Below are positions 5,610 through 45,529 of a stretch of 64,000 nucleotides of DNA, piece by piece. The notes under the pieces were generated by a model, which was not told the DNA's origin, made no database searches, and worked only from the letters and a program-made list of their open reading frames with translations. This DNA is from a virus. The translations under genes and the position numbers were made by a program. Every line of letters begins with the position of its first letter. The first letter of the stretch is position 1. Where the stretch lies: positions 1-64,000 of the IMG/VR virus record IMGVR_UViG_3300007512_001547. One strand, written 5' to 3'.

Positions 5610-5816
5610 ATGATAAAAGAAGCACTTATAAAAAAACTAGAAGGCGATATTGCTAAAATAGAAGCTAACATTGTAACTTACCTAAGCAATCCTATTTCTG
5701 TAGTAGCAGATCATATTGATTATATTACTCCTATTGAAAAGGAATTAGAAAAGTTATCTGCGGCGAAAGGTAAATTAGTATCTTTAAAAAATATTAAATT
5801 TAAGTTAGATGAATGA
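5610..5816 (+). CDS. Hypothetical helical protein
   Basis: 68-aa ORF between promoter and sufB. Confidence 0.7.
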
Positions 5817-7667: not shown

Positions 7668-8058
7668 ACTTACAGAATATAAAAATAATATCGAAGCCTT
7701 ACAAGAAATCGATAATTTAGAAGTTTATAGATGGTTAATTTCACTTGGTGCAAAGTTAGACGATGATCCTTTAAGTGAAGAAAAACGTATTGACAAAAAT
7801 AAAGTTAGTCGTTGTCAATTTGACTTATACGTTGATTTTGAAGATGGCAAATTTAAAGCATGGAGTAATGCCGCAATAGCAGGTGGCTATGCTTATATAT
7901 TGTTAGATATTTTTAATTCACTACCTCCAACAACAAAAATTACAGTAGAAGATTTTCAACAAATTAAACTAGACAAACTATTAACAATGAATAGAACAAC
8001 CGGCTTCTATCAAATGATTGAAATGATTATAAAGAAAATACAAAATGCTAAAAATTAA
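7651..8058 (+). CDS. sufE: SufE-like sulfur acceptor
   Basis: Y..LI.LG, KVSRCQ (conserved Cys), S.A.I..G, LTMNR..GF. Confidence 0.8.
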   Translation: MNYSNKLTEYKNNIEALQEIDNLEVYRWLISLGAKLDDDPLSEEKRIDKNKVSRCQFDLYVDFEDGKFKAWSNAAIAGGYAYILLDIFNSLPPTTKITVEDFQQIKLDKLLTMNRTTGFYQMIEMIIKKIQNAKN

Positions 8059-8782
8059 AAATTTAAAAGTATCAATTAATAATAAAGAAATAATAAAAGA
8101 TTTAAATCTTGAAATTAAACAAGGCGAGATTCATGCCCTCATGGGTCCAAACGGTTCTGGCAAAAGTACTTTGTCTAATGTTTTAGCTGGAAAAGATGGC
8201 TATAATGTTACAGGAGAGATACTTTACAAAGGAGAAGATCTTTTAAAAATGTCAATAGAAGAAAGAGCAAGAAAAGGATTGTTTATGGCTTTTCAATATC
8301 CTATAGAAATTCCTGGTGTTAATACAATTAATTTTTTAAAAAGTTCTTTAAATGTGGTTCGAAAATCTAATAAAAAAGAAGCAATAGATACTTTTGAATT
8401 TTTAGATTTAGTAAAAGAAAAAGCTAAAGCTCTTAATGTTAATGGTTCTATACTTAATAGACATCTAAACGTAGGGTTCTCGGGTGGAGAAAAAAAGAAA
8501 AATGAAATATTACAAATGTCTGTTTTAGAACCTATGTTTGCTATTTTGGACGAAACAGATTCTGGATTAGACATTGATTCTTTAAAAATAATTTCTAATG
8601 GTATTAATTCTTTAAGAAGTATATGTAGATCTTTTTTAATTATTACACACTATCAACGTTTATTAGAACACATTAAACCAGACTTTGTTCACGTACTTGC
8701 AGATGGAAAAATAATCAAAACTGGTTGCAGTGAATTAGCTGAAGAATTAGACAAAGTAGGATATGGAGATAAAAATAGTTAG
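8045..8782 (+). CDS. sufC: Fe-S assembly ATPase SufC
   Basis: GPNGSGKS, FQYPIEIPGV, GFSGGEKKK, ILDETDSGLDID, ITHYQRLL. Confidence 0.98.
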   Translation: MLKIKNLKVSINNKEIIKDLNLEIKQGEIHALMGPNGSGKSTLSNVLAGKDGYNVTGEILYKGEDLLKMSIEERARKGLFMAFQYPIEIPGVNTINFLKSSLNVVRKSNKKEAIDTFEFLDLVKEKAKALNVNGSILNRHLNVGFSGGEKKKNEILQMSVLEPMFAILDETDSGLDIDSLKIISNGINSLRSICRSFLIITHYQRLLEHIKPDFVHVLADGKIIKTGCSELAEELDKVGYGDKNS

Positions 8783-10436: not shown

Positions 10437-10452
10437 TCTGTTATAATATAGT

Positions 10453-11997
10453 ATGAAACGAGTAGCACTCTTAATAGCACCACGAATACAAGATGATTTT
10501 GGTTATACTCCTGCAGGTCCGGCTTTAGTAAAAGGATCAATTAAAAAAGCAGGACATGACTGTAAAATTTTTGATTTTAACAGTGATCTTGAAAGAGAAT
10601 ATCAAGATTCAGAAATAGTTCCAATTGATAATTGGTTTATGAATCACAATTTCTATTCTGATAAAATCTATAAAAAAATACATGCTTTAATAGACAAGTG
10701 GACTGATGACGTCTTACAGTATGCACCAACCGACGTCGGAATAAGTGTATTTTCGTACAACAGTCAACGAGCAACTATAATGCTGGCAACAACCTTAAAA
10801 AGTAAAAATCCAGATATAAAAGTTTTTATTGGTGGAGCAGGATTAAACACTGATAACAAGTTTGGCAAATATTGTATGGATGAAAAAATTATTGACTGCT
10901 GGATACGTGGAGAGGGTGAACTATCAGTTCTAGCATATCTAGAAGGAAATCTTTCACATCCTGGACTTAATGGAATTCCACCAAAACAAATAGACAACAT
11001 TGACGATTTAGAATTTCCTGATTACAGTGATTATGAACTAGCCTCATATACTAACAAAAAAGGATTAGTTGCTTTACCTATTACAGGATCTAGAGGTTGT
11101 GTTAGAGCCTGTACATTTTGTGATATTGCAAGTATGTGGCCAAAATATAAATTTAGATCAGGTAAAAGTATTGCAAAAGAAATTAAAACACAGGTTAAGA
11201 AGTATGGTGCTAAAGCATTTAGATTTACCGATAGTTTAATTAATGGTTCAATGAAAGCATTTAGAGATATGACATACGAACTATCTAAATTTAGAATGGC
11301 TATAAAACCTGAAGATAGATTTATTTGGGATTCTCACTTTATTGTAAGAAATGAAAAACAAATGCCACCTCAGGACTTTAAAGTAATGGCAGAGTCTGGT
11401 GCAGGAACTTTACTAATAGGAGTAGAATCTGGATCAGCAAAAGTAAGAGAACATATGAAAAAAGGTTATACTGACGAAGATTTACATTACAGTCTCGAAC
11501 AAATATTTAAAAACAATATTAAAGTAAGATTTTTAATGATAATAGGGTACCCTACTGAAACAGAAGAGGACTTTCAACAAACATTAGACTTTTTTAATAG
11601 GTATGCTGAATATGGTCGCCAAGGATTAGTTGAGGAAGTAAATTTAGGACTTACTTTAAATCTTTTACCTAACACACCTTTATATGATAATGCTGAAAAG
11701 TTTGGACTTGATACAACAAAAGATCACATAAATGATTGGATATGTACTCAAAACCCAACATTAGATTTTAAAGAACGATTAAAAAGAAGAATAAATGCTC
11801 AACACTATGTTGAAAACTTAGGTTATAAAGTTTTTGAATCTAAAAATTATACTAGAGCATTGTCAATTGCTTGGAACGAAGTTAGTAAAATACAAATAGA
11901 TAACACTATTAAAATTGATGCTAGTAAAATAAAATTTGATAGAGAAAAAGGAATATTGGAACAGTCACCAGACTTTGATCCATTAAGAACTTATTAA
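10453..11997 (+). CDS. Cobalamin-binding radical SAM enzyme
   Basis: N-terminal B12-binding-like domain (GISVFS, VFIGG, GEGE); SRGCVRACTFC CxxxCxxC; IGVESGS; IIGYPTETEEDF. Confidence 0.92.
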   Translation: MKRVALLIAPRIQDDFGYTPAGPALVKGSIKKAGHDCKIFDFNSDLEREYQDSEIVPIDNWFMNHNFYSDKIYKKIHALIDKWTDDVLQYAPTDVGISVFSYNSQRATIMLATTLKSKNPDIKVFIGGAGLNTDNKFGKYCMDEKIIDCWIRGEGELSVLAYLEGNLSHPGLNGIPPKQIDNIDDLEFPDYSDYELASYTNKKGLVALPITGSRGCVRACTFCDIASMWPKYKFRSGKSIAKEIKTQVKKYGAKAFRFTDSLINGSMKAFRDMTYELSKFRMAIKPEDRFIWDSHFIVRNEKQMPPQDFKVMAESGAGTLLIGVESGSAKVREHMKKGYTDEDLHYSLEQIFKNNIKVRFLMIIGYPTETEEDFQQTLDFFNRYAEYGRQGLVEEVNLGLTLNLLPNTPLYDNAEKFGLDTTKDHINDWICTQNPTLDFKERLKRRINAQHYVENLGYKVFESKNYTRALSIAWNEVSKIQIDNTIKIDASKIKFDREKGILEQSPDFDPLRTY

Positions 11998-21969: not shown

Positions 21970-22110
21970 ATGGCAGGTCGATCAAAAAAGATCTATCAAA
22001 TAACTCACACTCTCGTAACGACAAAAGAATCTAATCTCAAAGGCAACATAACTAATCTCTTGGCTATACATAGCCAGCCTCTTGACCACGGCATGAGTGT
22101 CTTTGAGTAG
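21970..22110 (+). CDS. Candidate 46-aa small ORF (not in ORF track)
   Basis: MAGRSKKIYQITHT...GMSVFE; preceded by TAAATATnnnTGAGCGAGGT, also found upstream of the next gene. Confidence 0.4.
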   Translation: MAGRSKKIYQITHTLVTTKESNLKGNITNLLAIHSQPLDHGMSVFE

Positions 22111-22131
22111 ATTCTATCTCTAATACACCCA

Positions 22132-22139
22132 TATAAATA
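22132..22139 (+). promoter_or_regulatory. T4-type late promoter TATAAATA
   Basis: Exact T4 late consensus 17 nt upstream of the giant-protein ATG, followed by GAGG RBS. Confidence 0.6.
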
Positions 22140-22156
22140 TTGCTGAGCGAGGTATT

Positions 22157-25100
22157 ATGTCAGAGCATTCCATTGGAAAAATTACAATTACTGACGGTGT
22201 CGTTGTAATTCAACGAGATAATCAGTCAATAGAACTACAAGAAGGCGATTCTATCTATCTTAATGATGTTGTAGAAGCCAAAGGCGGTTCTGTTGGTATT
22301 GCATTTGCTGACCAAACCTCAATGTCAATTGATCCAGGTGCAAAAATGGTCATTGACGAATTTGTTTATGACCCTGAAGATCCTACAACAGGTTCAATGA
22401 GCGCCAATGTAATCACAGGAAACTTTTCTTTTGTTTCAGGACAAATTGCCAAAGTGGGTAATGATGCAATGAAAGTTACAACACCTGTGTTAACAATTGG
22501 TGTTAGAGGTACACAGGTTGCAGGTAAGGCCAATACAGATGGTGAAGAAAACGAGATAGTTCTACTGCCAAACGATGATGGCACAGTTGGACAGATTATG
22601 ATCAAAAACGAATCTGGCGAAGTGTTATTGACAAAAGCATTTGAGGCAACAACAATTATAAATGCTTATACTGTTCCTACTGTACCTGTTATATTACCAA
22701 AAGAAATAGTTCTTAAAAAGTTTGCTTCTACTATTGCAACAACTAGAAAAACAGAAGCAAAAGCAGAAGTAGAAAGAGAAACGGAAGAAGCAGTTAGAGA
22801 AAAAGAAAAAGCCGAGGATGAAAAAGAAGAACTAGAAGAGGAAAAAGAAAAACTTGAGGAAGAACAAGAAGAACTAGAAGAAGAAAAGGAAGAACTAGAA
22901 GAAAAAGTTGAGGAACTTGAAGAAGAGAAAGAGGAAGTAGCAGAAGAGAAAGAAGAAATCGAAGAGAAACTTGAAGAAGTATTTGAAGAGAAAGAAGAAA
23001 TCGAAGAGAAGAAAGAAGAAGTTGTAGAAGAAATTGAGGAACTCGAAGAGAAATTAGAAGATGCCAACATACAAGAAAGACAGGCCATCGAGAAAGAACT
23101 AGAAAAATTAGAAGAAGAATTTGAAGAGATAGAGGACGAAGTACAAGAGATCGAGAAAGAGATTGATGTAGTTGCCAAAGAGAAGGTAGCGGTTGAGAAG
23201 AAAGTACGAGAGATTGAGAAAGAATTCGTTGAAGCAAAAAAAGATTTTGTTGAGATAGAACAAAAAGTAGAATTTGTTGAAAAAGAAGTATTAGAAGTAA
23301 TTGAAAAAGAACTAGTGATAGAGCAAGAGATTAAACTAGTTGAAGAAAAATTTGAAGCCATTGTAGAAGAATTTGAAGTGTTCCAAAAAGAATTCGTGCA
23401 GGAGTTCGAGGACTTCATTCCAGAAGAGGAGATACAACAGTTTATGGAAGAAGCACCAATAGAACTTATTGAGGAATTCCAAGAAAACATAATAGAAAAA
23501 TTAGAAGAAGAAAAAGTAAACATACAGGAAAATGAGAACGAAGTAAAGAAAGATGAGGAAGTAGAAGATCCATTTGCTGAAGAAAACGTTGAGAAGGCTA
23601 TAAAGGACTTGGACCAAAAGCAGGAAGAACTGATAGGTGAAGTAGACGAACTGATAGAGAAAGATATGGAACTTCAAGAAGAGGCTAAGGAACTAGATGA
23701 GAAAGCACAGCAACTTGAGGAAGAAGCACAGGAATTAGAAAAGGAAGCACGTCAATTAGAAGAAGAGGCAGAGAAAGCCTACGCAAACAATGACGAAGAA
23801 GCAATACAGGAAATCGAAGAAAAGTTCCAAGAACTAGATGAGAAGTTTGAGGAAGTTGATCAAGGGTTCCAACAAATTGACGAGGGTTTCCAAGAATTAG
23901 ACAAAGAGTACAAAGAACTTGACGAACAGTTCCAAGAGGTCAACGAGCAGTTTATCGATATAGATGAACAATTTCAGGAAGTGATAGAGTTCGAGCAGAA
24001 ACTTGAAGATAACCAACAGGTTGATGGACCAGGGTTCAACGAAGACAATGATGTGTTTAACGTGCCTGAAGATCAACAAGTAGACAACATAAAAGTAGAA
24101 CAGTTTATAAAGGAAGAAAAAGAAAAAGCACTAGAAAATAATGTGTTTGCCCAAGAGGCAGAGGATTTCTTTGAAAACGAGGAAGTTATCATAAACGAAG
24201 ATGTAGATGATCAAGTAAAAGATTTGTTTATCCTTAATGCACAAAACATTGATCAATTTATAGAAGGTGCTGGTAGTGGTATTAATAATGCAGAAGATTA
24301 TGAGGATCAAGAAAATGAATGGGCAGACTATGATGCCATAATGGACTACAACGAAGAAGCATACGAAGATCAACTAGAAGCAGATGCATGGTTTGATCAA
24401 TGGATAGCAGATTTGGCTGAAGAACAAAATATAAACGTTGCTCCATGGTTAGATATGCCAAACGATACAAGTGTTGCTGAAAGCCTATCTGTAGGAACGA
24501 CTTTAGGTTATGTGTATGGTTCAGACGCAAACGGTGATCAATTAACTTACAGCATATTAAGTGATGCATCAGGCAAGATTGCAATAGACGGAAGTAGATT
24601 GTATTTGAAAGAATCATTTGATACCATTTCATCCGACACAGAGTATTCCGTATTATTAAAAGTGCAAGATCCATATGGTGCATCTGATGTGGACGAATGG
24701 ACAGTTACAGTTGAGAACAACCACTCGCCTGTGATATCCAACACTAGTGCTGTGTCATTAGCAGAGAACGTTAGCACAGGTACAGCGGTGGCAACAATAT
24801 CTGCCTCTGACGCTGAAAGCGAAACAATAACATATTCAATAACAGCAGGTAATGACGAAGGCAAGTTTTCTATCAACAGTTCAACAGGTGTAATCACATA
24901 CAACACACAGACGGCTGTGCTGACCACAGAAACGTTTGAAAGCACTTCCGATGGTGCAACACCAACAGGTTGGACAGGATCAACAGTTGACGCCACGACC
25001 TACTACGGAAAAATATTAGGTAGGTTCAATGGAGATTCAAACACAGGACAGGATGTCTACAAGACATTTGATTTCAACAGTTCACACGCAGGCAAACGAG

Positions 25101-27247
25101 TCGAGATAGATTTCAACTTCTGGGAGTTTGGTACGTGGGACGCAACTAATCACGGATCACTGGATCAGAGATTCATGGTGTACGTGAACGACACGTTAGT
25201 TGTGCAGGACTTGAGAAGATACACAGGCTCAAACCAACAGAAGTATGGAGAAACAGTGGGTAACCTAGGCACAGGTTGGCAGGCGGCACCAGTTGAATCT
25301 GGCATGGCTATTGTAAACCAATATCAAGAAGGTGAACTTTACAGGGTGTACGGTACACTAGACAGCAATGGTGACATAAAATTAGGATTTGGTGCGAGAC
25401 TGGACGAGGGTATCAACAACGAGAGTGGTGCTGTTGACAACATAAAGATATCACTAACAGATTTAAATTACGAGGACGACACGCAACACGTTCTCACAAT
25501 TACGGCGACCGACGCAGGTAACAACACAGACACAGTTACACAGACAATCAATGTGACAGACGTCAACGAAGCACCATATTTCATTGACAATGTGTATGCG
25601 GCGAGAACGATAGCAGAGAACGGCTCGTCTGGTACAGATGTTGCCAAGGTACACGCAGAAGATCTCGAGGGAGATTCCATAACATATTCAATCACAGCAG
25701 GTAACACCGGCAATAAATTTACAATTAACTCATCGACGGGTCTGATCGAGACAGCAGGTGCACTGGACTATGAGACGACCAGTTCATACACATTAACGAT
25801 TACAGCAACTGATGAGCATAGTGCAACCGACACAACCACGATAACAGTGAACGTGTCTGATGACACATCGGACAATAGTTTCGCCCAAGGCATAAGCAAC
25901 ACTTCTATAGATGCCTGGGGAGCAAGATACTCGCATGACATGGTATTAAACAACGCATGGGCGGAAGGTAATGTTTTAGTGATGCACGGTGACAGAACTT
26001 TAAGCGGTAGCACCCAACTGGGTGGCAATCTTGGAGATACTCAGGCTGGATCATTATCTGTTTCCTACGATAATGATAGTGCTGGTAATTTTTCTACTAT
26101 GAGTTTGGCATACGTATCACAGTTTTCACAGATTTGGGATGGAAATTGGAACACAAGGGTTAATAGCAATAGTGATCTAACTGATCTTTGGGGCAAATAC
26201 CTCATGGCAGGAGGCTCGTTGGTTGTAGTCACAGAACACTCTGGTTGGGACAATGCCAAGAATGCCGACGTAGAAGATTTCATCAATGTGATTGACACAA
26301 CGTCATCGACTAACAACAATTTGATCAGTGGATCCGGTCCAACTCCACAACACCTACAACCAGATTACCTAGGGTACTCTGAAGGAAGTTCGGAACTGGA
26401 GTTAAAGCCGGGACAGTCAACATCAACCTATCACAAAGAGTACATGGGTAGAGGAGATCTGGTGTTCCAAGAAACAGGTAATGACAACGATGGTGCAGTG
26501 GCAGAATGGAGCAGAGAAGACACAGAAGCGGTGTACACAGGAGCATTCCTTGCCTGGGGTGACATTGATGCTCACAGTCACATCTCTTCTTTTGGATCAG
26601 AACAAGCACATTGGGAGATTGCTAGATGGTTAACAGAACAGAACGAGGACGCAATGACAGAATCGGACGGTGCAGGCATAGTGGTTGACTCTGAATACCT
26701 TCCGAGGTTTGCAGATTCATATGGATCCGGGATACACGAGACAGAGAATGATATTACTGCTATAGAATCACTTCACCTAGGTAACAATGTGTACATTGGG
26801 GGTGGTATGGATCACATCGACCTTGTGTGGGATGACTCGGCGGACGCCGCATACTGGGCCTTTAACTCAGACATGGACAACGGTGCAACACCAACTCAAG
26901 CAGATGATCACTATGGTGTGATAGGTTATGACCGGGACGGTGATGGAGATCTCTGGGAGACCACTGACACATTCACCCTAAACAAAATCAAGATACTGGA
27001 TGACTCGGAGGACTACCTGACACAAGACCCAGATGCCAGTGGCGATTATTACTTTAAAATAACACCGGTTGTTTACGCTGGTGGCAGTTGGCAAGTGGTC
27101 ACCTCACAAACAGTGACAGTTTCAAACACAACAGGCTACAACGATTACCTTGATTTAGATGCAGTTTCTGATGCTTTCGACAACATAAATTACGCACTGA
27201 TCGAGACAGAGTCGGCACTAATATCAGAAGTTGTGGTTTCTACATAA
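22157..27247 (+). CDS. Giant acidic T1SS-substrate-like protein: FecR/retention-module N-terminus, Glu-rich coiled coil, three cadherin repeats, inserted lectin-like domain, C-terminal domains
   Basis: IGKI...G.V.I.R...GDSIYLND...TTPVLTIGVRGT; heptad repeats; LDYE/DVNEAP cadherin motifs; no Sec signal. Confidence 0.85.
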   Translation: MSEHSIGKITITDGVVVIQRDNQSIELQEGDSIYLNDVVEAKGGSVGIAFADQTSMSIDPGAKMVIDEFVYDPEDPTTGSMSANVITGNFSFVSGQIAKVGNDAMKVTTPVLTIGVRGTQVAGKANTDGEENEIVLLPNDDGTVGQIMIKNESGEVLLTKAFEATTIINAYTVPTVPVILPKEIVLKKFASTIATTRKTEAKAEVERETEEAVREKEKAEDEKEELEEEKEKLEEEQEELEEEKEELEEKVEELEEEKEEVAEEKEEIEEKLEEVFEEKEEIEEKKEEVVEEIEELEEKLEDANIQERQAIEKELEKLEEEFEEIEDEVQEIEKEIDVVAKEKVAVEKKVREIEKEFVEAKKDFVEIEQKVEFVEKEVLEVIEKELVIEQEIKLVEEKFEAIVEEFEVFQKEFVQEFEDFIPEEEIQQFMEEAPIELIEEFQENIIEKLEEEKVNIQENENEVKKDEEVEDPFAEENVEKAIKDLDQKQEELIGEVDELIEKDMELQEEAKELDEKAQQLEEEAQELEKEARQLEEEAEKAYANNDEEAIQEIEEKFQELDEKFEEVDQGFQQIDEGFQELDKEYKELDEQFQEVNEQFIDIDEQFQEVIEFEQKLEDNQQVDGPGFNEDNDVFNVPEDQQVDNIKVEQFIKEEKEKALENNVFAQEAEDFFENEEVIINEDVDDQVKDLFILNAQNIDQFIEGAGSGINNAEDYEDQENEWADYDAIMDYNEEAYEDQLEADAWFDQWIADLAEEQNINVAPWLDMPNDTSVAESLSVGTTLGYVYGSDANGDQLTYSILSDASGKIAIDGSRLYLKESFDTISSDTEYSVLLKVQDPYGASDVDEWTVTVENNHSPVISNTSAVSLAENVSTGTAVATISASDAESETITYSITAGNDEGKFSINSSTGVITYNTQTAVLTTETFESTSDGATPTGWTGSTVDATTYYGKILGRFNGDSNTGQDVYKTFDFNSSHAGKRVEIDFNFWEFGTWDATNHGSLDQRFMVYVNDTLVVQDLRRYTGSNQQKYGETVGNLGTGWQAAPVESGMAIVNQYQEGELYRVYGTLDSNGDIKLGFGARLDEGINNESGAVDNIKISLTDLNYEDDTQHVLTITATDAGNNTDTVTQTINVTDVNEAPYFIDNVYAARTIAENGSSGTDVAKVHAEDLEGDSITYSITAGNTGNKFTINSSTGLIETAGALDYETTSSYTLTITATDEHSATDTTTITVNVSDDTSDNSFAQGISNTSIDAWGARYSHDMVLNNAWAEGNVLVMHGDRTLSGSTQLGGNLGDTQAGSLSVSYDNDSAGNFSTMSLAYVSQFSQIWDGNWNTRVNSNSDLTDLWGKYLMAGGSLVVVTEHSGWDNAKNADVEDFINVIDTTSSTNNNLISGSGPTPQHLQPDYLGYSEGSSELELKPGQSTSTYHKEYMGRGDLVFQETGNDNDGAVAEWSREDTEAVYTGAFLAWGDIDAHSHISSFGSEQAHWEIARWLTEQNEDAMTESDGAGIVVDSEYLPRFADSYGSGIHETENDITAIESLHLGNNVYIGGGMDHIDLVWDDSADAAYWAFNSDMDNGATPTQADDHYGVIGYDRDGDGDLWETTDTFTLNKIKILDDSEDYLTQDPDASGDYYFKITPVVYAGGSWQVVTSQTVTVSNTTGYNDYLDLDAVSDAFDNINYALIETESALISEVVVST
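22810..23400 (+). repeat. In-frame imperfect 21-nt (7-aa) repeat array encoding acidic heptads
   Basis: EKEELEE/EKEKLEE/EQEELEE/KVEELEE/EKEEIEE...; boundaries approximate. Confidence 0.8.
23590..24000 (+). repeat. Second heptad array in giant protein
   Basis: AQQLEEE/AQELEKE/ARQLEEE and KFQELDE/KFEEVDQ/GFQQIDE/GFQELDK/QFQEVNE; boundaries approximate. Confidence 0.75.
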
Positions 27248-27265
27248 AATAAATATACATATTAA

Positions 27266-29116
27266 ATGAAAAAATTAGTTAATTACATCCTAATAGCAAT
27301 AATGCTGAACTGGAACGTGACTGTTTTTGCGGACGACGATGTTGAGGGTTGTAAATGGGAAGTAGTTGAAGAAACTGAACAGTATCTACAGGAACAATGT
27401 ATAGGAGTAGACGGTCAATATAGTGCAAGAATAAGATCTAAACCTATCGACAACAGTATAGTATATGTAAAAACTGAAAAGAAAGATGCAAATCCTATAC
27501 AAAAATATAGAGACAGTGAAGTATTAAAAACACCGATTGGTGTACATGACGATTTAAAAATTGCAGAGTTAAAAGAAGAAGTTGAAACAACTGCAAAAAA
27601 AATTGATCAACTAAAAATAGATCAAGCAGTAGAAGAAAAGAAAAAAATTGAGTTAGATGTAGTTGAAAAAGCAATTGAACACATTGAAGAAAAGAAAACT
27701 GCAGAAACAGAAAAAGCACAAGTACTTGATCCAAAACTTAAAAATGAATTAAACAAAAAAGACATACATGAAGAGTCAGATAAAAAAATTATTGCAGAAG
27801 CAGAAGAAAAAGAATGGAAAGAAGTAGATGAAAATGTTGAAGTTGCGGAAGTAGAAAAAGAGCCTAAAATTAATTGGATGACATTGTATCAAATGTTACC
27901 AAGACTTATTTTAGAAAACGAAAAAGTTAAAGCGGCAGAATTAGATTATGAAGCGGCATTAGAAACATTAAAATCAGAATATTCTGCATACTATCCTCAA
28001 GTAACAATTACTGTAGGAAACAACTGGGAAGACGACAGATCAGTTTCTAAAGGCACATATCCTAGCAATACAATTACACATGACGGAAAACACGGTGTAC
28101 AAAAATCTATTTCAATTACACAAATGTTATGGGACTTTGGAAGAACAACGGCTGTTATCGACAAAGCAAAACACACAGCACAACAGGCCTATTATAGATT
28201 AGAACTTGCAACAGAAGATGTTGTTATGGAAGCCATTAATGCATGGTTAAATCTACAGAAAGCATACAACACACACGAAGCAAATAAAAAAGTAGAAGCA
28301 AATGCAAAAATTACACTTGCAATGACAATAGAGAAAGTTAAAGCAGGACAAGGTTCTAAACTAGAACAACTGCAAATAGAACAGCAATATAGAACATATC
28401 AAACAATAGTAATGACAAGTAACCTACAACTTGATTCAGCAATACAGAGATTCCAAAATGTATGGAGATACTATCCTACAGATGTTGCAAGTATGCCAAT
28501 ACCATTTGCAGACTTATTAGGTATCATACCTGATTCAGGAAGATCGGTAACTGACAACACTACATTAAAAATTGCACATTTAGATATTGAGATTGCAAAA
28601 GAACAAAAGAAATTTAGCGATGCAGAGTTTAGACCTAGAATAGATGGTAAACTTTCTTACACAGAAAAAGACGGAGAGTTAAGTGGTGGATATGATACTG
28701 ATGACGCACAAAAAGAAGAGTTTAGAGCAGATATTACATTAACTTGGAAACTGTTTGCTGGAGGTAAAAACAAACATATGAATAGTGCTGATAGAATAAG
28801 AATGGAAGCCGCTATTACAAGATATGCTGATACTAAAAGAACAGTACAAGAACAATTTACCAATGCATGGAACAACTATGTATTAGTTGAAAAAAATCTA
28901 GAGACTCTAAAAAGAACAGTAGAAATCAATGATGAGATGTACAAACTTACACTTGCAGACTTTCAAGCAGGTAATTCACCTATAATGGCTGTGTTTGGCA
29001 TGAAGACAGCACATATTATGAGTGAAGTTGCTTATGCAAATGCTCAACTAGATTTATTAATTGCTAGATACCAATTACATAAAGTTCTAGGACTCGTAGA
29101 TCCAAAACTAGACTAA
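27266..29116 (+). CDS. TolC-family outer-membrane channel with about 180-aa charged N-terminal extension
   Basis: Signal peptide; AYYPQV, TQMLWDFGRT, EFRPRIDG, LTWKLFAGG, YQLHKVLG. Confidence 0.9.
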   Translation: MKKLVNYILIAIMLNWNVTVFADDDVEGCKWEVVEETEQYLQEQCIGVDGQYSARIRSKPIDNSIVYVKTEKKDANPIQKYRDSEVLKTPIGVHDDLKIAELKEEVETTAKKIDQLKIDQAVEEKKKIELDVVEKAIEHIEEKKTAETEKAQVLDPKLKNELNKKDIHEESDKKIIAEAEEKEWKEVDENVEVAEVEKEPKINWMTLYQMLPRLILENEKVKAAELDYEAALETLKSEYSAYYPQVTITVGNNWEDDRSVSKGTYPSNTITHDGKHGVQKSISITQMLWDFGRTTAVIDKAKHTAQQAYYRLELATEDVVMEAINAWLNLQKAYNTHEANKKVEANAKITLAMTIEKVKAGQGSKLEQLQIEQQYRTYQTIVMTSNLQLDSAIQRFQNVWRYYPTDVASMPIPFADLLGIIPDSGRSVTDNTTLKIAHLDIEIAKEQKKFSDAEFRPRIDGKLSYTEKDGELSGGYDTDDAQKEEFRADITLTWKLFAGGKNKHMNSADRIRMEAAITRYADTKRTVQEQFTNAWNNYVLVEKNLETLKRTVEINDEMYKLTLADFQAGNSPIMAVFGMKTAHIMSEVAYANAQLDLLIARYQLHKVLGLVDPKLD

Positions 29117-29139: not shown

Positions 29140-29895
29140 ATGAAAAACCTAATACGACATCTGTCCAAAGAACCAGGCACGGCATCAATGCTGTTTACCA
29201 GCAGTTTCATAATTGGTATTTGTGCTTTGGCCCCTGCACTATTTGTTATAATTGTTCTTAACAAGTATCTAACATCAGGTGTCACAGCAACATTAATAAG
29301 TTTGTCAATTGGAGCAGTGTTGGCCATAGCATTTGAGTTCACTTTTAGACAGAACAGAGGCAAGATGATGACCGCTTTCAACCAACGTGTGTATGATCCT
29401 CTGTTGAAAGCATTTGGAGAAAAATTTAGCAAAGCAGGACAACTCACTGCACAGCAGTATAAAAAATTAGACAGTGCAGGCACAATGATTAAAAATATGA
29501 GGACATCATCGATGACTAGTTGGATATTGGACTGGCCTTTTGTGTTGATGTTTTTGATTGTGTTGCTGTACATAAATTGGGCCGCATCAATAATCACAGC
29601 AATATTCATGTTGGTAATGTACTTTTTGATAACATGGAAAAAGAACGTGTCCATGTCACAGGACACACAGAGCAACATAGAAATATTTTTAAACGGATTA
29701 CAGACAATCGTGATCATGTCAGTTGGTGCAATGATGATTATAGCCGGCACACTGGACATTGGATTACTGATCGGTTCTAACATATTGGCCGCCCGAGCAT
29801 TACAAGGAACCAGCAAGTATGCCAAGGCAAACGAATTTTTAAAGCAACGAGATCAAGCAGTTGGAGAAATAATAAATTATGTCAAAAGCAAGTAG
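29140..29895 (+). CDS. T1SS ABC-transporter membrane domain only (no nucleotide-binding domain)
   Basis: S.FII.I.ALAP.LFV, FEF.FR..R, LDWPF, G.LDIG.LI...IL.ARAL resemble PrtD/LapB TMD; stop codon follows directly. Confidence 0.8.
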   Translation: MKNLIRHLSKEPGTASMLFTSSFIIGICALAPALFVIIVLNKYLTSGVTATLISLSIGAVLAIAFEFTFRQNRGKMMTAFNQRVYDPLLKAFGEKFSKAGQLTAQQYKKLDSAGTMIKNMRTSSMTSWILDWPFVLMFLIVLLYINWAASIITAIFMLVMYFLITWKKNVSMSQDTQSNIEIFLNGLQTIVIMSVGAMMIIAGTLDIGLLIGSNILAARALQGTSKYAKANEFLKQRDQAVGEIINYVKSK

Positions 29896-30580
29896 TAGAT
29901 TCTTTTTTGCGATAACAACACTGTTTGTTATATTCTTCGTTTGGATGGTATTTGCAAAAGTAGACATAACAACACAGGCAGTTGGAATTGTTGTACCTGA
30001 GAAAAACATCACAAAACTAGGCACAATGGTCACAGGAGAAATTGTTGCTGTGAATTACAAGCAAGGAGATGTTGTCAAGAAAGGTGATGTCATAATAACA
30101 ATCAATCCAGGAGTTGGTTACGAACCTAGAAACATTGTGGCAAACATTGATGGCAGGATACAAGAACTCACTTATAGAAATCCAGGTTCCGTTGTAAAAC
30201 AGGGTGACGGACTTGCAATACTTGTACCATTAGATCAGAAACTTATAGTTAATGGAAGGCTTCTTGTAAAAGATAGAGGTTATGTCAAGGTTGGAATGGA
30301 CGCAAAAGTGAGACTTGCCAATCAAGACCAATTAAAATTTGATAGCATTGATGCAAAAATAATATCCATATCTCCAGATGCTGTACAGTCTGACAGTGCC
30401 GCATGGTATGACATAGAACTAGAAATAGAAAAAGAATTTTTCACAAGTGGTGACACGACTTACAATCTTGTGCCTGGTATCCATGTGTATGTTTTCATAT
30501 TAACAGGAGAGAGAACAGTATTAAGTTATATAACAACACCTTTCCATAACGGAATAGGGCAGGCACTACAGGAAAGGTAA
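29879..30580 (+). CDS. Short HlyD-family membrane-fusion protein lacking alpha-helical hairpin
   Basis: N-terminal TM, WM.FAKVDI...G.V.P, GDVVKKGD, DRGYVKVG, ISPDA, LVPG, I.TGERTVLSY. Confidence 0.88.
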   Translation: MSKASSRFFFAITTLFVIFFVWMVFAKVDITTQAVGIVVPEKNITKLGTMVTGEIVAVNYKQGDVVKKGDVIITINPGVGYEPRNIVANIDGRIQELTYRNPGSVVKQGDGLAILVPLDQKLIVNGRLLVKDRGYVKVGMDAKVRLANQDQLKFDSIDAKIISISPDAVQSDSAAWYDIELEIEKEFFTSGDTTYNLVPGIHVYVFILTGERTVLSYITTPFHNGIGQALQER

Positions 30581-32508
30581 TGAGATTTTTTACAAGCATA
30601 TGGATGGTTATTATTGTTGCTATTGTATTGCTAGGTGTCAGAGTAAACAATAACGATACTGTAAAAACTTTAAGATACAAAACGTGGGATTACTTTCAAA
30701 CTATACATCCTAGACAAGACGTTAGTGATTTAGTTACTATTGTTGATATAGGCGAAAAAGATATTGCAAAGTATGGACAATGGCCATGGCCTAGACATAT
30801 AATGGCAATGCTTCATGCACGATTAGGCGACGCAGGAGCAGTAGTAATTAATTACAATATTCTTTTTGCTGAACCAGATCGTATGGGATCAACCCAATAT
30901 CTAAATTCTTTTCCGATGTCTGATGAAACTAGAGAACTATTACAAAAAAATTTAGTAGACACAGACAAAGTTTTTTCTATAGTAATAAAAGAATCTGGCA
31001 ATACTATTTTAATGATGAGTGTTAAAAATAACATTGATAACATTTTACCTAGCACAACGCAAATTATAAAAAAAGGAAATGTAGAGCCATGGTTATGGAA
31101 CTATGCAGGTATAGTACCTCCTTTGACTGAACTTACAGTAGGTGTAGCAGGAAGTGGTGTAAATGTAACAGCACCCGAACCTGATTCTGTTGTAAGAAAA
31201 ATGCCAATACTAATAACAATAGGCAACAAAATATATCCTAGTATGTTAATTGAAAATGTTAGAGTAATTAACAAATCGAAAAGAATTAAAGTTGTTGCTA
31301 AAGAACACGGTATAGACGAAATCCTTGTTAAAAAGAATGCTGGAATACCTGTAAATCATAATGCAGAAATGTATATAAATTATGCAGATCCAAAAAAATA
31401 TAATCACGTATCTGCTGACTATGTTTTAAGTTCTGAATTTGATGCAAATACAGTTAAAGGAAAAATAGTAGTTGTTGGATTAGATGCCGCGGGATTAAGT
31501 GTGTTAAAATATACACCGTTTGGATTAGCTACAGATCAAGAAATTACTGCTCAAGCATTAGATACATTACTAACAGGAAAATATTTGACTAGGCTTCCAC
31601 AGGCAGATACATATGAAATTTTGTTTATGGGTTTACTAGGATTATTAATGATTATATTAATTCCTAGAGTATCAGTATTATTTTCTATTCCGTTATTAGT
31701 TTTTGTATTAGGTGGAATAAGTTATGCATCATTTATGGCTTATGCAAATAAAGGATTTTTAATTGACCCATCATTTGCAGTACTTTATATATTTTTAATT
31801 TGGTCACATAGCACATACAATAATTTTGCAACACAAAGTAGATTAAGAAAACAAATTAAAAAACAATTTGAACATTATTTAGATCCTGGCATGGTTAAAA
31901 AGTTACAAAAGAATCCATCATTGTTAAAATTAGGTGGCGAAACAAAAACAATGACTTTCTTATTTTCAGACATAAGAGGATTTACACCTATTAGTGAAAA
32001 GTATAAAGGTAATCCAGAAGGACTTACAAAATTAATTAATAGATTTTTAACTAGGATGACCAATGTTATTATTGCTAACGGCGGCACAATAGATAAATTT
32101 ATGGGCGACTGTATAATGGCATTTTGGAATGCTCCACTTGATGTACCAAATCATCAAGTATTAGCAATACAAACTGCTCTACAAATGCAAACCGAATTAG
32201 CAAAATTAAATAAAGAATTAGAAGCTGAAGGATTACCAAACATTAACATAGGCATAGGAATCAACACAGGTGAAGCACTTGTAGGCAACATGGGTTCTGA
32301 TCAAAGATTTGATTATTCTGTAATAGGTGACTCTGTTAACCTTGCATCACGTTTAGAAAGCTCTAGTAAAACATTAGGAAAAACTTTAGTAATTTCAGAC
32401 AATACAGTGCAAGATATTTACGAAGGTGTATTTCCGTTTGAGTATATTGACCATATTACAGTCAAAGGCAAAACAGAAGAAATCAAAGTGTATACAATCA
32501 AAAGTTAA
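30580..32508 (+). CDS. CHASE2-domain class III adenylate cyclase
   Basis: VDIGEKDIAKYGQWPWPR, three TMs, FSDIRGFT, IDKFMGDCIMAFW, YSVIGDSVNLASRLE. Confidence 0.96.
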   Translation: MRFFTSIWMVIIVAIVLLGVRVNNNDTVKTLRYKTWDYFQTIHPRQDVSDLVTIVDIGEKDIAKYGQWPWPRHIMAMLHARLGDAGAVVINYNILFAEPDRMGSTQYLNSFPMSDETRELLQKNLVDTDKVFSIVIKESGNTILMMSVKNNIDNILPSTTQIIKKGNVEPWLWNYAGIVPPLTELTVGVAGSGVNVTAPEPDSVVRKMPILITIGNKIYPSMLIENVRVINKSKRIKVVAKEHGIDEILVKKNAGIPVNHNAEMYINYADPKKYNHVSADYVLSSEFDANTVKGKIVVVGLDAAGLSVLKYTPFGLATDQEITAQALDTLLTGKYLTRLPQADTYEILFMGLLGLLMIILIPRVSVLFSIPLLVFVLGGISYASFMAYANKGFLIDPSFAVLYIFLIWSHSTYNNFATQSRLRKQIKKQFEHYLDPGMVKKLQKNPSLLKLGGETKTMTFLFSDIRGFTPISEKYKGNPEGLTKLINRFLTRMTNVIIANGGTIDKFMGDCIMAFWNAPLDVPNHQVLAIQTALQMQTELAKLNKELEAEGLPNINIGIGINTGEALVGNMGSDQRFDYSVIGDSVNLASRLESSSKTLGKTLVISDNTVQDIYEGVFPFEYIDHITVKGKTEEIKVYTIKS

Positions 32509-41195: not shown

Positions 41196-42605
41196 ATGGC
41201 ACGATTAATAATAGACACTGGAACAGAAGGAAACACGGCAACAGGCGATACTTTACGTGGCGCTATGGCGAAGATCAACGCGAATTTCGTAGAGGTCTAC
41301 GATGATTTAGCCGGATCTAGTTTGGGTGGATTATTCACAAACAACCAAACCAATGGTGATGTAAAAATACAAGCCAATGGAACGGGTATAGTCGAAATAG
41401 ATCAATTACAAATTACAGATGATGCAATAACTTCGCTTGTTACAAACGGTGATGTGACACTAGCAGGTAACGGCACAGGTGTGGTACACGTGAACGATAC
41501 ATTAACAGTTGGTGTTAACAATACCAATGCAACCATAACAACTCTTGGAACTGGTGATTTAACATTAAGCACAAACAGTGGCACAAATTCAGGTACAATA
41601 AAAATAGCTGATGGTGCAGGTGGAAACATCACAGTTGAGCCTAATGGCTCAGGTGACATTTTATTAAAGGCAGGTGGTCAAGTTGGTATAGGAGATGTTA
41701 GTTCACCTGACACTTCATTACATATTAAACAATCCACTGCAACCATAACACTCCAGAGAACAAGTGATGCAAACACACCAGGTATTGATTTCCAAAGTGC
41801 CGGCGGTGACGTCAGAGCCAAGATGTACATGGATGGTACTAATGGAACAAACAAAGAAATTATTTTTAAAGTAAGAGATAATTCAAGTACGGACGAAAGA
41901 TTTAGAGTTACATGGACCGGGGCCAGTGTAACAGGAACTTTTAACATTATGAGTGATAGTGATTCTTCTTTAAGTGATGCTACCATCAGCATGACTGAGA
42001 ACAAAATTACAACATTAAGATCTAACGATAATCTAGAATTATCTGCGAATGGTACAGGCAAGGTCTATACAGACAGTAATTTACATTTACATTCTGCTAC
42101 ACCGCTTATTCAATTTCAAAGAACAGACAACGCAAACGTGCCTGGAATAAGTTTTTTAGGTGATGGTGGAACAGAAGGGGCCAGTATTAAATTTGATGGA
42201 ACTGATGGTACAACAAACGAAATAATTTTAAGTTCTTTTTATTCTAGTGCTGTAACAGAAAGACTTAGAGTTACAACAACAGGAGCCAAAGTTTCAGGCA
42301 CTTTGGACGTAGACGGTGCCATCACGATAACAGATAACAAAATTAGTGCTTCAAGAAGTAATGACGATTTAAATTTAGCGGCGTCAGGAACTGGTAATAT
42401 TGTTGTTGGTGCAATTACAATAAACGGTACAACTATAAGTTCAGCAGATTCAACAAAAATATCAATTGCAGAAGCAGTAGATATAAATGGTAATTTAGTT
42501 GCAACAGGATCACAAATAGATTTTACTAATCTTCCAACATCGGATCCAAGTGTTGCAGGAAGACTTTGGAGAAGTGGAACAGATCTAAAAATTAGTATAG
42601 GATAA
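41196..42605 (+). CDS. Tail fibre/baseplate-attached fibre protein, T4 gp9-like N-terminus
   Basis: LIIDTGTEGNTATGDTLR..MAKINANF; Gly/Thr/Asn-rich repeats; internal ~80-aa duplicated module. Confidence 0.75.
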   Translation: MARLIIDTGTEGNTATGDTLRGAMAKINANFVEVYDDLAGSSLGGLFTNNQTNGDVKIQANGTGIVEIDQLQITDDAITSLVTNGDVTLAGNGTGVVHVNDTLTVGVNNTNATITTLGTGDLTLSTNSGTNSGTIKIADGAGGNITVEPNGSGDILLKAGGQVGIGDVSSPDTSLHIKQSTATITLQRTSDANTPGIDFQSAGGDVRAKMYMDGTNGTNKEIIFKVRDNSSTDERFRVTWTGASVTGTFNIMSDSDSSLSDATISMTENKITTLRSNDNLELSANGTGKVYTDSNLHLHSATPLIQFQRTDNANVPGISFLGDGGTEGASIKFDGTDGTTNEIILSSFYSSAVTERLRVTTTGAKVSGTLDVDGAITITDNKISASRSNDDLNLAASGTGNIVVGAITINGTTISSADSTKISIAEAVDINGNLVATGSQIDFTNLPTSDPSVAGRLWRSGTDLKISIG

Positions 42606-42611
42606 TAAACA

Positions 42612-43610
42612 ATGGCACAGACAACAATTAATGTAGGTAGTAACGCAAATGACGGAACAGGTGATGATTTAAGATCAGCATTTATTTCTGTAAATGCTAA
42701 CTTCACAGAATTATATGCGGCATCTCCTGCAACTTCTTCAATATCACTTGCAGGAAATACAATTTCTACAAATGCCTCAAATGCAAATTTAAAATTATTA
42801 GCATCTGGTACAGGTGTTATAGAATTAGAAGGAATTCAAATTAGAGATAACCACATTGAAGGTACAAGATCAAATGAAGATTTAATTGTATCTGCATCAG
42901 GTACAGGAAACATTATTGTAGGTGCAATTAGAATTAATGGTACAACTTTAAGTGCAGATGATTCTAGTTCAATTAAAATTAATGAAACATTACAAGTCAA
43001 TACAATTTCTTCTGATGATTCTAGTGCTGTAACAGTCTCAGACAATTTAAATATATCTGGAACTTTAAGTGTAAACACAATTGATACCAATTCAATTTCA
43101 TCTTCAGACTCAACTGCAATACAAATTAATGATGCATTAAACGTTTCTGGAACTTTAAGTGCAAACATACTTGACACAAACGTAATATCGTCTACAGATT
43201 CTAGTGCTGTAACAATATCAGACAACTTGCAAGTCAATGGAACACTAACAGCAACATCAATTACTGGATTAACCGTATTAAACAATTCTTCACAATCAGA
43301 TGGCACAGTAACACACGCAGGTTCATCTGGACAACAACCATTAGACAGTTTTGTTCATGCAACTTACAGAAGTGCAAAATATCAAGTTAGTATTACAGAT
43401 GCGGCAGAGAGTAGATATGCACTTGACGAAATCTACGTAACTCATAACGGTACAACTGCTTTCATATCAACAACAGGTGTAAGTTCAACTGGAGCATCAT
43501 TAGCAACTTACTCAGCAGATATTAGTGGTAACAACTGTAGAATTTTAATAGTTCCTGTATCTAATAATTCAGTTACATATAAGTTTGTTAAAACGTTAAT
43601 CAAAGTATAA
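42612..43610 (+). CDS. Fibre protein, T4 gp10-like N-terminus
   Basis: INVGSNANDGTGDDLR..F..VN.NF.ELY; ~30-aa repeats. Confidence 0.75.
   Translation: MAQTTINVGSNANDGTGDDLRSAFISVNANFTELYAASPATSSISLAGNTISTNASNANLKLLASGTGVIELEGIQIRDNHIEGTRSNEDLIVSASGTGNIIVGAIRINGTTLSADDSSSIKINETLQVNTISSDDSSAVTVSDNLNISGTLSVNTIDTNSISSSDSTAIQINDALNVSGTLSANILDTNVISSTDSSAVTISDNLQVNGTLTATSITGLTVLNNSSQSDGTVTHAGSSGQQPLDSFVHATYRSAKYQVSITDAAESRYALDEIYVTHNGTTAFISTTGVSSTGASLATYSADISGNNCRILIVPVSNNSVTYKFVKTLIKV
42950..43260 (+). repeat. In-frame ~30-aa repeats in fibre gene
   Basis: ISS.DS.A..I.D.L..SGTLS.N..DTN repeated 3-4 times; boundaries approximate. Confidence 0.75.
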
Positions 43611-43666
43611 AATTACATTCGGTTTATAAAATTTCTAATAAATAATCATATTAGGAGATTTAAAAC

Positions 43667-45529
43667 ATGGCACAACAAACAGTTAGCATAGGTTCATCAG
43701 CAAATGACGGTACAGGTGATCCATTAAGAACAGCATTTACAAAGATAAATGCAAATTTTACAGAATTATACGGCGATACTGCCGAAGCAAATGATATACT
43801 AGATGATACATCACCCCAATTAGGTGGTAATCTAGATATAAACGGATTTAATATTACATCAGCAAGATCAAACGAAAATATTAGAATTATTCCTAACGGA
43901 ACAGGTACAGTTGAGCTTGAAGGAACAACTAATGTTACAGGAAGTTTAACAGCAACAGGAAATATTTTTGCAAATGGAAACATTAACCTTGGTGATGGTG
44001 CAGGTGACCAAACAAAAGTAACTGGTGTATTTGAAGCAGACCAATTACAAATTGATGGTACAACATTAACAAGCACAGTTACAAACGGTGACGTAACTAT
44101 AACTGGAAATGCAACAGGTGGTGTCATTATTGAAAATTTAACTTTTAATGATAACACAATAACCTCACCTTCAAACAGTCATATATCAATTCAACCAGGT
44201 GGAACAGGTAATGTTGTAGTAGGTGCAGTAACAGTTAGTGGTACAACTTTAAGTGCGGCAGATTCATCTCAAATTACAATAGCAGAAGCATTACAAGTTA
44301 ACGGTGCGGCAACTTTAGGAACAAGTGTAACATTGGCAACAGGTGCAACTGTAACAGGTATCTTAGATGAAGATGCTATGGGAACAAATTCAGCAACACA
44401 ACTTGCTACACAACAATCAATAAAAGCATATGCAGATACAAAAGCAGTATTAACAGGTTCAACTAATAATACTATTACAACAGTAACAGGTGCTCATGCA
44501 TTCCAAGGTGAAGCAAACTTAACTTTTGATGGTAGTACACTAGCCGTAACAGGAGCAGGAACATTTAGTACTACTTTAGGAATAACTGGAACACTAACAA
44601 CAGCAGATATTACTACAACTGGAACACACACAGTTACAGGACAATCAGATATTGACTATGTAAGAATTAAAGATCATGCAATTACAACAAATGCCTCAAA
44701 TGCTAACTTAGACCTTTCAGCAAATAGTACAGGTGTTGTTAATGTTGCATCAGCAATGACAACTATTGGACAAACTATTACAGGTGACGTTGTTGTTACA
44801 GGTAGAATGGATGTTGACAACGTTGCAATAAACGGAAACGGTATTATAGCAACAAATTCAAATGGTGCGTTAAACATAAATCCTAATGGTACAGGTATAA
44901 TCACACTGGGTGGATCTTATGTTCATGTACCTGAACAAATATTATGTGGAGAACTATGGTGCGATTATGGTATAGAAATGGGCACAGGAGCCACTATTGC
45001 ACAACGATCAACTAACGAAAATTTAGTATTTGAAACTAACGGTACTGGAGTAGTAACTACTGCTTCACAATTAACATTGACTGGATCTTTTAAACCAGCA
45101 ATACATACTTTCACGGCAACTGATGCAATTACAGAAACAGAACACGCAGGTAGAACATTATTACTTGGTGAAGTAGGTGGTAATGCACTAGTTACATTAA
45201 CACTACCAGACGCAACAGGTTCAGGTGCAACATACAAATTCATAGTAACAGTTGTGAACACATCAACCTATGTAATCAAAGCACCAGATGCCAATAACAC
45301 TATTGACGGTATCATGATGTACCTAGATGAAGACGCAACGGCAGTTACAGCATTTCCAACAGTAGCGGCTACTGATACTATCACCATTAATGGTGGTACA
45401 ACAGGTGGTCAAATAGGTGACTATCTTGAACTAGTTGATATAGCAACTGACCAATGGCACGTTAGAGGAACTATGAGATGCCTTACAGGTGTTAATCCAG
45501 CAACTTGCTTTAGTGCTACTGTATCTTAA
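43667..45529 (+). CDS. Fibre protein, T4 gp10-like N-terminus
   Basis: SANDGTGDPLRTAFTKINANFTELY; SPQLGGNLDING; repeated I...NGTG units. Confidence 0.75.
   Translation: MAQQTVSIGSSANDGTGDPLRTAFTKINANFTELYGDTAEANDILDDTSPQLGGNLDINGFNITSARSNENIRIIPNGTGTVELEGTTNVTGSLTATGNIFANGNINLGDGAGDQTKVTGVFEADQLQIDGTTLTSTVTNGDVTITGNATGGVIIENLTFNDNTITSPSNSHISIQPGGTGNVVVGAVTVSGTTLSAADSSQITIAEALQVNGAATLGTSVTLATGATVTGILDEDAMGTNSATQLATQQSIKAYADTKAVLTGSTNNTITTVTGAHAFQGEANLTFDGSTLAVTGAGTFSTTLGITGTLTTADITTTGTHTVTGQSDIDYVRIKDHAITTNASNANLDLSANSTGVVNVASAMTTIGQTITGDVVVTGRMDVDNVAINGNGIIATNSNGALNINPNGTGIITLGGSYVHVPEQILCGELWCDYGIEMGTGATIAQRSTNENLVFETNGTGVVTTASQLTLTGSFKPAIHTFTATDAITETEHAGRTLLLGEVGGNALVTLTLPDATGSGATYKFIVTVVNTSTYVIKAPDANNTIDGIMMYLDEDATAVTAFPTVAATDTITINGGTTGGQIGDYLELVDIATDQWHVRGTMRCLTGVNPATCFSATVS

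Follow-up and report, generated by a model that had tools for sequence, protein, structure and literature searches.

A type I secretion exporter membrane domain without ATPase or coupling hairpin, conserved beside a shortened HlyD in ocean phages

Type I secretion is thought to depend on an ABC ATPase, on a coupling helix and on an adaptor hairpin that reaches TolC, and the locus described here raises the question of what an exporter membrane domain is kept for in a phage when no ATPase follows it. The locus lies in a window of 64,000 nucleotides, the first 64 kb of a 137,583-bp IMG/VR virus record with a CheckV completeness of ~29%. The overall GC content of the window is ~32% and nearly every long ORF is located on the + strand. 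The phage identity is indicated by the IMG/VR virus record itself, three gp9/gp10-like baseplate connector paralogues and a clamp loader, and further by a virion structural protein and many PHROG-only families. A search with tblastn in the INPHARED phage collection gave a Salmonella chromosome record as the sole match, and in the literature on phage T1SS or NBD-less ABC proteins in phages no description of phage-borne T1SS remnants was found.

The ORF in question and its parts are the following:
29140..29895, + strand: PrtD-type T1SS ABC exporter membrane domain (TMD) without NBD and without ICL2, 251 aa (profiles, AF2, Foldseek, dN/dS)
29350..29511, + strand: first cytoplasmic loop, retained, residues 71–124 (AF2 helices 49–98 and 104–120)
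29638..29682, + strand: stub replacing the TM4-TM5 cytoplasmic hairpin with its coupling helix, residues ~167–181 (alignment, AF2 turn 171–173)
29815..29892, + strand: cytoplasmic extension of TM6, residues 226–251 (AF2 helix 207–249, alignment)

The ORF starts with ATG and overlaps the HlyD ORF, which begins at 29879, by 17 nt. When run against the NCBIfam profiles, residues 17–161 matched positions 153–301 of the 696 in the LssB profile TIGR03375 (E 1.9e-18), the PrtD profile TIGR01842 matched with E 2e-9 and residues 178–223 matched positions 365–410 of the HlyB profile TIGR01846. The protein has neither the NBD nor the coupling hairpin of the T1SS families and stays below their curated cut-offs (66.1 bits vs 693 for TIGR03375, 36.5 vs 510 for TIGR01842). 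Pfam ABC_membrane (PF00664) gave no match to the 251-aa protein at E <= 0.1 and nothing at E <= 1 when the whole record was searched in six frames, while a full-length bacterial relative (L016) does match it with 62.8 bits. A PDB search with a family profile made from 20 members had PrtD (PDB 5L22) as its sole match, in two blocks where query residues 6–172 correspond to chain residues 13–180 and 194–212 to 268–286. The profile alignment to PrtD-type exporters, proposed along with the original prediction, gave a partial collinear match in which 22 query residues (172–194) stand against 88 in PrtD (180–268).

Alignments located both losses, which are common to all short forms. In an alignment of 101 sequences a segment of 55–57 residues following residue 166 of the window protein is present in 88/88 full-length relatives and missing from 12/13 short forms. 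In a further alignment the protein ends ~17 columns beyond the point where the relatives continue into the NBD linker, its TM6 extension stopping at the start of that linker. The 101-sequence alignment gave an AF2 model with a pLDDT of 93.2 and a pTM of 0.85 (pLDDT was 52 with a shallow alignment of 20 close homologues), showing six TM helices at residues 12–46, 49–98, 104–120/125–145, 147–170, 174–201 and 207–249, where TM4 (147–170) passes into TM5 (174–201) via a 3-residue turn. The best Foldseek matches of the model were HlyB (8DCK, 7SGR), PCAT1, TmrAB and PrtD 5L22, with TMq 0.78–0.82 and probability 1.00, and the alignments of ~305–312 columns equal the query plus the missing hairpin. 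Both AF2 and Foldseek give the six-helix membrane domain of a type IV ABC exporter, and the ORF is confirmed as the membrane domain of a PrtD-type type I secretion ABC exporter without NBD. The prediction that it ends soon after the last TM and overlaps hlyD, leaving no room for an NBD, was borne out by the 17-nt overlap and by the end of the protein at the border between TM6 and NBD linker; the predicted cut of the TM4-TM5 loop to ~20 residues at 29630–29710 comes close enough to the stub at residues ~167–181 (29638–29682).

The retained first loop consists of the long TM2 extension, a 5-residue turn (99–103) and a return helix into TM3 in the AF2 model, and is collinear with the LssB and PrtD profiles. 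The structure of AaPrtD is without coupling helix 1, which was described as a peculiarity of AaPrtD (PMC8277102), and the TM2-TM3 loop of the model has the same PrtD-like form, a long TM2 extension and a loop instead of coupling helix 1. As this helix is already missing in the PrtD-like form and the TM4-TM5 hairpin has been removed, no coupling helix is therefore left. In comparison with the PrtD, LssB and HlyB exporters the phage protein shares the six-helix type IV fold, collinearity over TM1-TM4 and TM5-TM6 and the gene order with HlyD and TolC, but it has 251 aa against ~555 aa and lacks the NBD as well as the TM4-TM5 hairpin or coupling helix. Its nearest relatives are PrtD-type proteins of 545–570 aa.

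A motor could be encoded elsewhere, and an ATPase was searched for at several levels. At the locus of the membrane domain ABC_tran did not match in any of the six frames, and a six-frame search with PF00005 through the 137,583-bp record (~29% complete) found a single match above cut-off:
8045..8782, + strand: SufC, sole ABC-type NBD of the record and no partner of the TMD (PF00005; TIGR01978)

SufC was rejected as a motor acting in trans since it is a bona fide SufC (344 bits against a TIGR01978 cut-off of 213) located beside sufB and sufE, and a weak PF00005 P-loop match at 51446–51589 proved to be the clamp loader. None of five related viral records had an NBD above cut-off. A pattern scan of IMG/VR using the NBD of the nearest bacterial relatives, a type of scan by which diverged genes are missed, gave only generic ABC ATPases at 23–39% identity, many of them on giant-virus contigs. 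The orphan cognate NBD that the original prediction proposed to look for was consequently not encountered in the record, the five related records or the IMG/VR scan, and with its main NBD-docking element removed the membrane domain is unlikely to be driven by an NBD in trans.

The neighbouring adaptor gene was found to be cut as well:
29879..30580, + strand: HlyD-type membrane fusion protein, 233 aa, without the alpha-helical hairpin and the cytoplasmic N-terminus (TIGR01843, alignment)

Residues 85–233 of this HlyD match positions 272–422 of TIGR01843 (E 5.6e-45). In the alignment ~185 columns are gone, corresponding to the whole alpha-helical hairpin, and the lipoyl halves are joined by the sequence PGVGYE; the cytoplasmic N-terminus of 25–40 residues is gone too. 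The coordinated loss is in this way broader than was originally claimed. In established T1SS work (Koronakis and colleagues; the HlyB/D structures 7SGR and 8DCK) it is the HlyD hairpin that touches TolC, and substrate-triggered TolC recruitment reportedly requires the N-terminus of HlyD. Taken together, the losses in the ABC protein and in HlyD thus deprive the phage system of its motor and of the coupling to it, and also of the periplasmic bridge and the cytoplasmic tail of the adaptor, and judging from the alignments the phage lineage kept the membrane-embedded and membrane-proximal parts. A complex prediction with two copies of the membrane domain and HlyD scored 0.01, which speaks neither for nor against binding. 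HlyD has 233–242 aa in the phage-type loci with the exception of one locus, L111, where it has 292 aa. The latter (L111:1-8387, IMGVR_UViG_3300026267_000445) belongs to a divergent phage lineage and represents an intermediate state; its HlyD holds a hairpin remnant of ~70 residues, its membrane domain of 260 aa keeps 6 residues of the deleted loop and its giant gene is found on the opposite strand.

To what extent the short form is maintained was seen from its spread and its substitution pattern. Six IMG/VR loci hold complete copies of the short membrane domain at 65–96% identity, and a word-index search gave 836 homologues in marine metagenomes; the best 120 of the 836, which come from ENA, JGI, NCBI and Tara assemblies, are almost all 249–251 aa long, and some family members carry the JGI label 'LapB'. 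When phmmer was run exhaustively against 1.84 billion cluster representatives, clusters of ~250 aa appeared at 67, 47, 40, 38, 36, 35 and 30% identity, followed by hundreds of PrtD-type ABC proteins of 545–570 aa, which match at ~26–39% identity across the first ~165 residues. Short forms like P0124 (35%) and P0169 (30%) are found on IMG/VR contigs with the same neighbour genes; none like P0122 were found in the IMG/VR scan. In total the short form (248–260 aa) occurs in 12 phage-type loci down to ~30% identity, and the same boundaries of deletion and truncation are shared among short forms down to 25–36% identity. Pairwise dN/dS values (Nei-Gojobori) of the membrane domain gene are 0.03–0.11 at a dS of 0.4–1.0, and those of the neighbouring HlyD gene 0.04–0.12. 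Purifying selection and conserved length in diverged members, as in a functional family, make it well supported that the short membrane domain is under strong purifying selection and is not decaying. This agrees with the original claim of a coordinated in-frame loss under selection rather than random decay, in view of the dN/dS values, which are not pseudogene-like, of the 12 loci and of the single tree branch described below.

The conservation by region has the same profile in the short family as in the full-length family. The most conserved parts (mean identity 0.50–0.53) are TM1, the portion of TM2 within the membrane, and TM6 along with the periplasmic turn that joins it to TM5, and the least conserved ones, in both families, are ICL1 and TM4 (0.22–0.23) and also the stub. 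Since it is the membrane core and the periplasmic face that are conserved, selection therefore acts there and not on the cytoplasmic docking surface, a profile that points to a function in the membrane or on its periplasmic side rather than in NBD docking.

The membrane domain is linked to an HlyD-family adaptor and a TolC-family channel in the same order in all related loci, and is part of a cassette with three further genes:
22157..27247, + strand: giant protein with FecR and cadherin domains, 1696 aa, acidic (Pfam FecR, Cadherin)
27266..29116, + strand: TolC-family outer-membrane factor, 616 aa (Pfam OEP E 6e-49; TIGR01844 at residues 206–610)
30580..32508, + strand: CHASE2 sensor/class III adenylate cyclase, 642 aa (Pfam CHASE2 E 2e-41, Guanylate_cyc E 2e-23)

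The GC content rises to 36–42% over 22–30 kb as compared with ~30–33% in the rest of the window, which would fit a foreign origin of the cassette. The TolC-family protein has a charged N-terminal extension of ~200 residues. The giant protein, of which ~23% is Asp plus Glu, is syntenic in all loci and lacks a signal peptide. The phage copies share a conserved C-terminal tail (ending ...SALISEVVV..), and a short hydrophobic run closes the protein in the phage and bacterial homologues alike. From these features it is likely to be a T1SS-type cargo or anchor. The cyclase is the last gene of the conserved cassette and is present in every phage locus that extends beyond HlyD (locus L109 ends earlier).

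A pattern from a 10-sequence alignment was used in a scan of prokaryotes with one genome per species (185,579 species); a scan of the genome contigs with the single protein had no match. The pattern scan gave 78 bacterial loci from Rhodospirillaceae, Pelagibacteraceae SAGs, Magnetococcales, Desulfobacterales and some Gammaproteobacteria. In all loci that do not run into the end of their contig the ABC protein has 532–629 aa and HlyD at least 400 aa. Immediately upstream, many of the loci encode TolC and a giant whose FecR-type N-terminal region is homologous, and the full-length system of Desulfobacterales is accompanied by a homologue of the CHASE2 cyclase (E about 1e-100). The five-gene cassette therefore exists full-length in bacteria, and the combination of FecR giant, T1SS and CHASE2 cyclase appears not to have been described previously. 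Cassettes of marine Alphaproteobacteria and Desulfobacterales (for example L016, L013, L033, L045 and L057) have the same genes in the same order as the phage; they differ in an ABC protein of 532–629 aa with ABC_membrane and ABC_tran and an HlyD of 400–480 aa with the hairpin, both of which are short in the phage, and in giants with GGxGxD repeats, whereas the phage giants have cadherin domains and none of those repeats.

The short membrane domain and the short HlyD occur together in 12/12 phage-type loci. A tree was made from the concatenated membrane domain and HlyD using only the columns present in the short forms, so that the trait itself did not enter, and all ten short rows fell on one side of a single branch with a long stem (SH-aLRT 98), in a tree that is unrooted, built with a quick method and affected by long branches and composition bias. 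From this topology, one origin of the stripped architecture would fit.

Having lost the ATP motor and the loop that docks it, the membrane domain must act as something other than a self-powered pump, and the conserved core and periplasmic face together with the 17-nt overlap with hlyD point to a non-catalytic inner-membrane partner of the short HlyD. With moderate confidence we propose that it is a functional, ATPase-less derivative of a T1SS exporter which serves as a non-catalytic scaffold or anchor of the inner membrane in partnership with the short HlyD. Its identity, architecture, conservation, selection and cassette ancestry are shown by the data; the pairing with HlyD, read from the gene overlap and from homology, and the scaffold role are inferred. 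In such a course of events the ancestor of a clade of large marine T4-like phages would have acquired a bacterial cassette of a FecR-headed giant, TolC, ABC, HlyD and CHASE2 cyclase, whereupon its inner-membrane parts would have lost whatever projects out of the membrane. From the ABC protein the NBD would have gone, and so would the TM4-TM5 hairpin that bears the coupling helix; from HlyD, the alpha-hairpin and the cytoplasmic N-terminus. Besides the six-helix core in the membrane, the TM2/TM3 bundle is left, as is the extension of TM6. Such a protein can by itself neither bind nor hydrolyse ATP, and it would act inside an envelope module of the phage as the non-catalytic partner of the short HlyD.

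That the gene is a decaying pseudogene or an artefact of assembly or gene calling has a practically negligible probability; truncated phage genes are often relics and in the window the giant gene nearby has its 5' end in another frame, but this reading is refuted by the dN/dS of 0.03–0.11, by the recurrent length (almost all of the best 120 of 836 homologues have 249–251 aa, from hundreds of independent assemblies) and by deletion boundaries shared down to 25–36% identity, and hlyD follows directly with its 17-nt overlap. A rather unlikely alternative, which takes up the dominant-negative partner also considered in the original prediction, is that the stripped membrane domain and HlyD co-assemble with the full-length ABC protein and HlyD of the host, either blocking its type I secretion or re-directing its motor to the giant and TolC of the phage. 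A full-length system homologous to that of the phage is indeed present in candidate host groups (marine Rhodospirillaceae, Pelagibacteraceae and others), in many cases together with a FecR giant, and T1SS ABC genes of 532 and 722 aa occur in a 2-Mb MAG into which two phage-type contigs were binned. Type IV ABC half-transporters work as dimers in which the TM4-TM5 hairpin reaches the opposite NBD (PMC8277102), so that a hairpin-less subunit would cripple a heterodimer. The giant, moreover, resembles a T1SS substrate in need of an ATPase; its lack of a signal peptide and its conserved T1SS-like C-terminus imply that it still needs an energised exporter. The 251-aa protein cannot be such an exporter on its own, which speaks against the scaffold reading and keeps this alternative alive. 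Against it stand an identity of only ~23–37% to the bacterial relatives with a long stem branch, low for specific heteromerisation, and a complete, conserved parallel set in the phage (TolC, membrane domain, HlyD, cargo and cyclase) that goes beyond what an inhibitor needs.

It is quite improbable that the dimeric six-helix pathway works as an ATP-independent channel or secondary transporter, passive or driven by the proton gradient. SbmA, which has no NBD and is structurally related to ABC membrane domains, is such a proton-driven transporter (PMC8442886, PMC13316013) and is, in function, the closest precedent for an ABC-like membrane protein that does without an NBD; the membrane core and periplasmic TM5-TM6 turn are the most conserved parts here as in full-length exporters. 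The likeness is functional only, however: Pfam SbmA_BacA did not match at E <= 0.1, there was no SbmA chain among the Foldseek matches listed, and SbmA, which imports its substrates, has a fold variant of its own and no link to HlyD or TolC, while the phage protein is a recent, clean truncation of a T1SS exporter. ATP-free movement of a 1696-aa protein would also be without precedent, and HlyD lacks the hairpin that normally forms the conduit to TolC. Very improbable is a split transporter, in which a separate NBD encoded in the remaining ~70% of the phage genome docks onto the TM2/TM3/TM6 bundle. The record is only ~29% complete and both the TM6 extension and the ICL1 bundle are kept, but the TM4-TM5 coupling hairpin is deleted in the short forms of a protein type that is without coupling helix 1, ICL1 is poorly conserved, and no T1SS-type NBD was found in 137 kb, five related viral records and the IMG/VR pattern scan.

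The non-catalytic partnership with HlyD, to which preference is given, can be extended to the whole cassette. In bacteria, genes of FecR-domain proteins are documented next to those of CHASE2 sensors (PMC5192318, PMC5498481), and this neighbourhood suggests a periplasmic communication between the CHASE2 cyclase and the FecR head of the giant. The stripped membrane domain, HlyD and TolC would then form a static trans-envelope socket for the giant, no longer a secretion pump, which would hold the FecR-headed cadherin protein in the envelope of the infected cell and show FecR to CHASE2, a surface sensor of the phage setting host cAMP; this extension we consider distinctly unlikely.

Among known systems, the T1SS of LapB, LapC and LapE with the cargo LapA has a complete ATPase and MFP together with LapD/LapG-type regulators, and for such Lap-type systems there is the idea that the N-terminal domain of the cargo remains at the periplasmic side. 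The phage cassette resembles them in having the gene of a giant repetitive surface protein beside the TolC, ABC and MFP genes, but its N-terminal module is FecR-like and a CHASE2 cyclase takes the place of the LapD/LapG-type regulators. Widespread large ocean phages keep three T1SS genes under strong selection minus exactly the ATPase, the coupling helix and the adaptor hairpin, which may mean either a new role free of the motor (envelope scaffold, sensor socket or hijacker of host pumps) or type I export powered by undescribed means. The clean natural deletions delimit a minimal, foldable membrane core of an ABC exporter, useful for structural and engineering work, and the full-length cassette of bacteria gives an experimental handle on the poorly understood CHASE2/FecR signalling pair.

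When analysing the loci some further features were observed. The full-length bacterial ABC relatives (L016:9988-10677, L013, L033, L037 and L045) have the signature L-[ASP]-[VLF]-G-I-R-[RK]-R and not LSGGQ. Their Walker A and Walker B motifs seem undamaged, as does the H-loop in most cases, and from the degenerate signature motif the ATPase site may have been unusual already in the ancestral system. The MAG mentioned above is 'Rickettsiales bacterium MED657' (2 Mb), in which two near-identical phage-type contigs (L011 and L012; NZHE01000025 and NZHE01000018) carrying the stripped cassette at 57% identity are binned, and the 532-aa and 722-aa T1SS ABC genes are located on a large contig; the phage-type contigs may be either bin contamination or a hint to the host. 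In the window the first ~85 residues of the giant protein, as known from L007, L008, L012 and the bacterial homologues, are found only out of frame (21988–22303), where residues 44–82 of the L008 protein correspond to 21988–22107 in another frame, followed by a stop, and a new start of the ORF lies at 22157; this represents either a real truncation of the gene at its 5' end or a sequencing frameshift. The junction between HlyD and the cyclase is variable, the genes abutting at 30580 in the window and being 400–480 nt apart in relatives (L008:8913-9391 with a 127-aa ORF, L003:3301-3782 and L012:10429-10838).

Elsewhere in the window, sufB, a VOC/glyoxalase-family gene, sufE and sufC are consecutive in the phage at 5809–8782, and after sufC a fragment of a BtuB-like TonB-dependent receptor (Plug domain) and a B12-binding radical SAM enzyme follow (8763–11997). 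Three genes in a row at 41196–45529, encoding 469, 332 and 620 aa, have a common N-terminal gp9/gp10-like baseplate wedge connector module (phrog_677), and the next gene after them, at 45574–48075, encodes a protein of 833 aa rich in He_PIG Ig-like domains.
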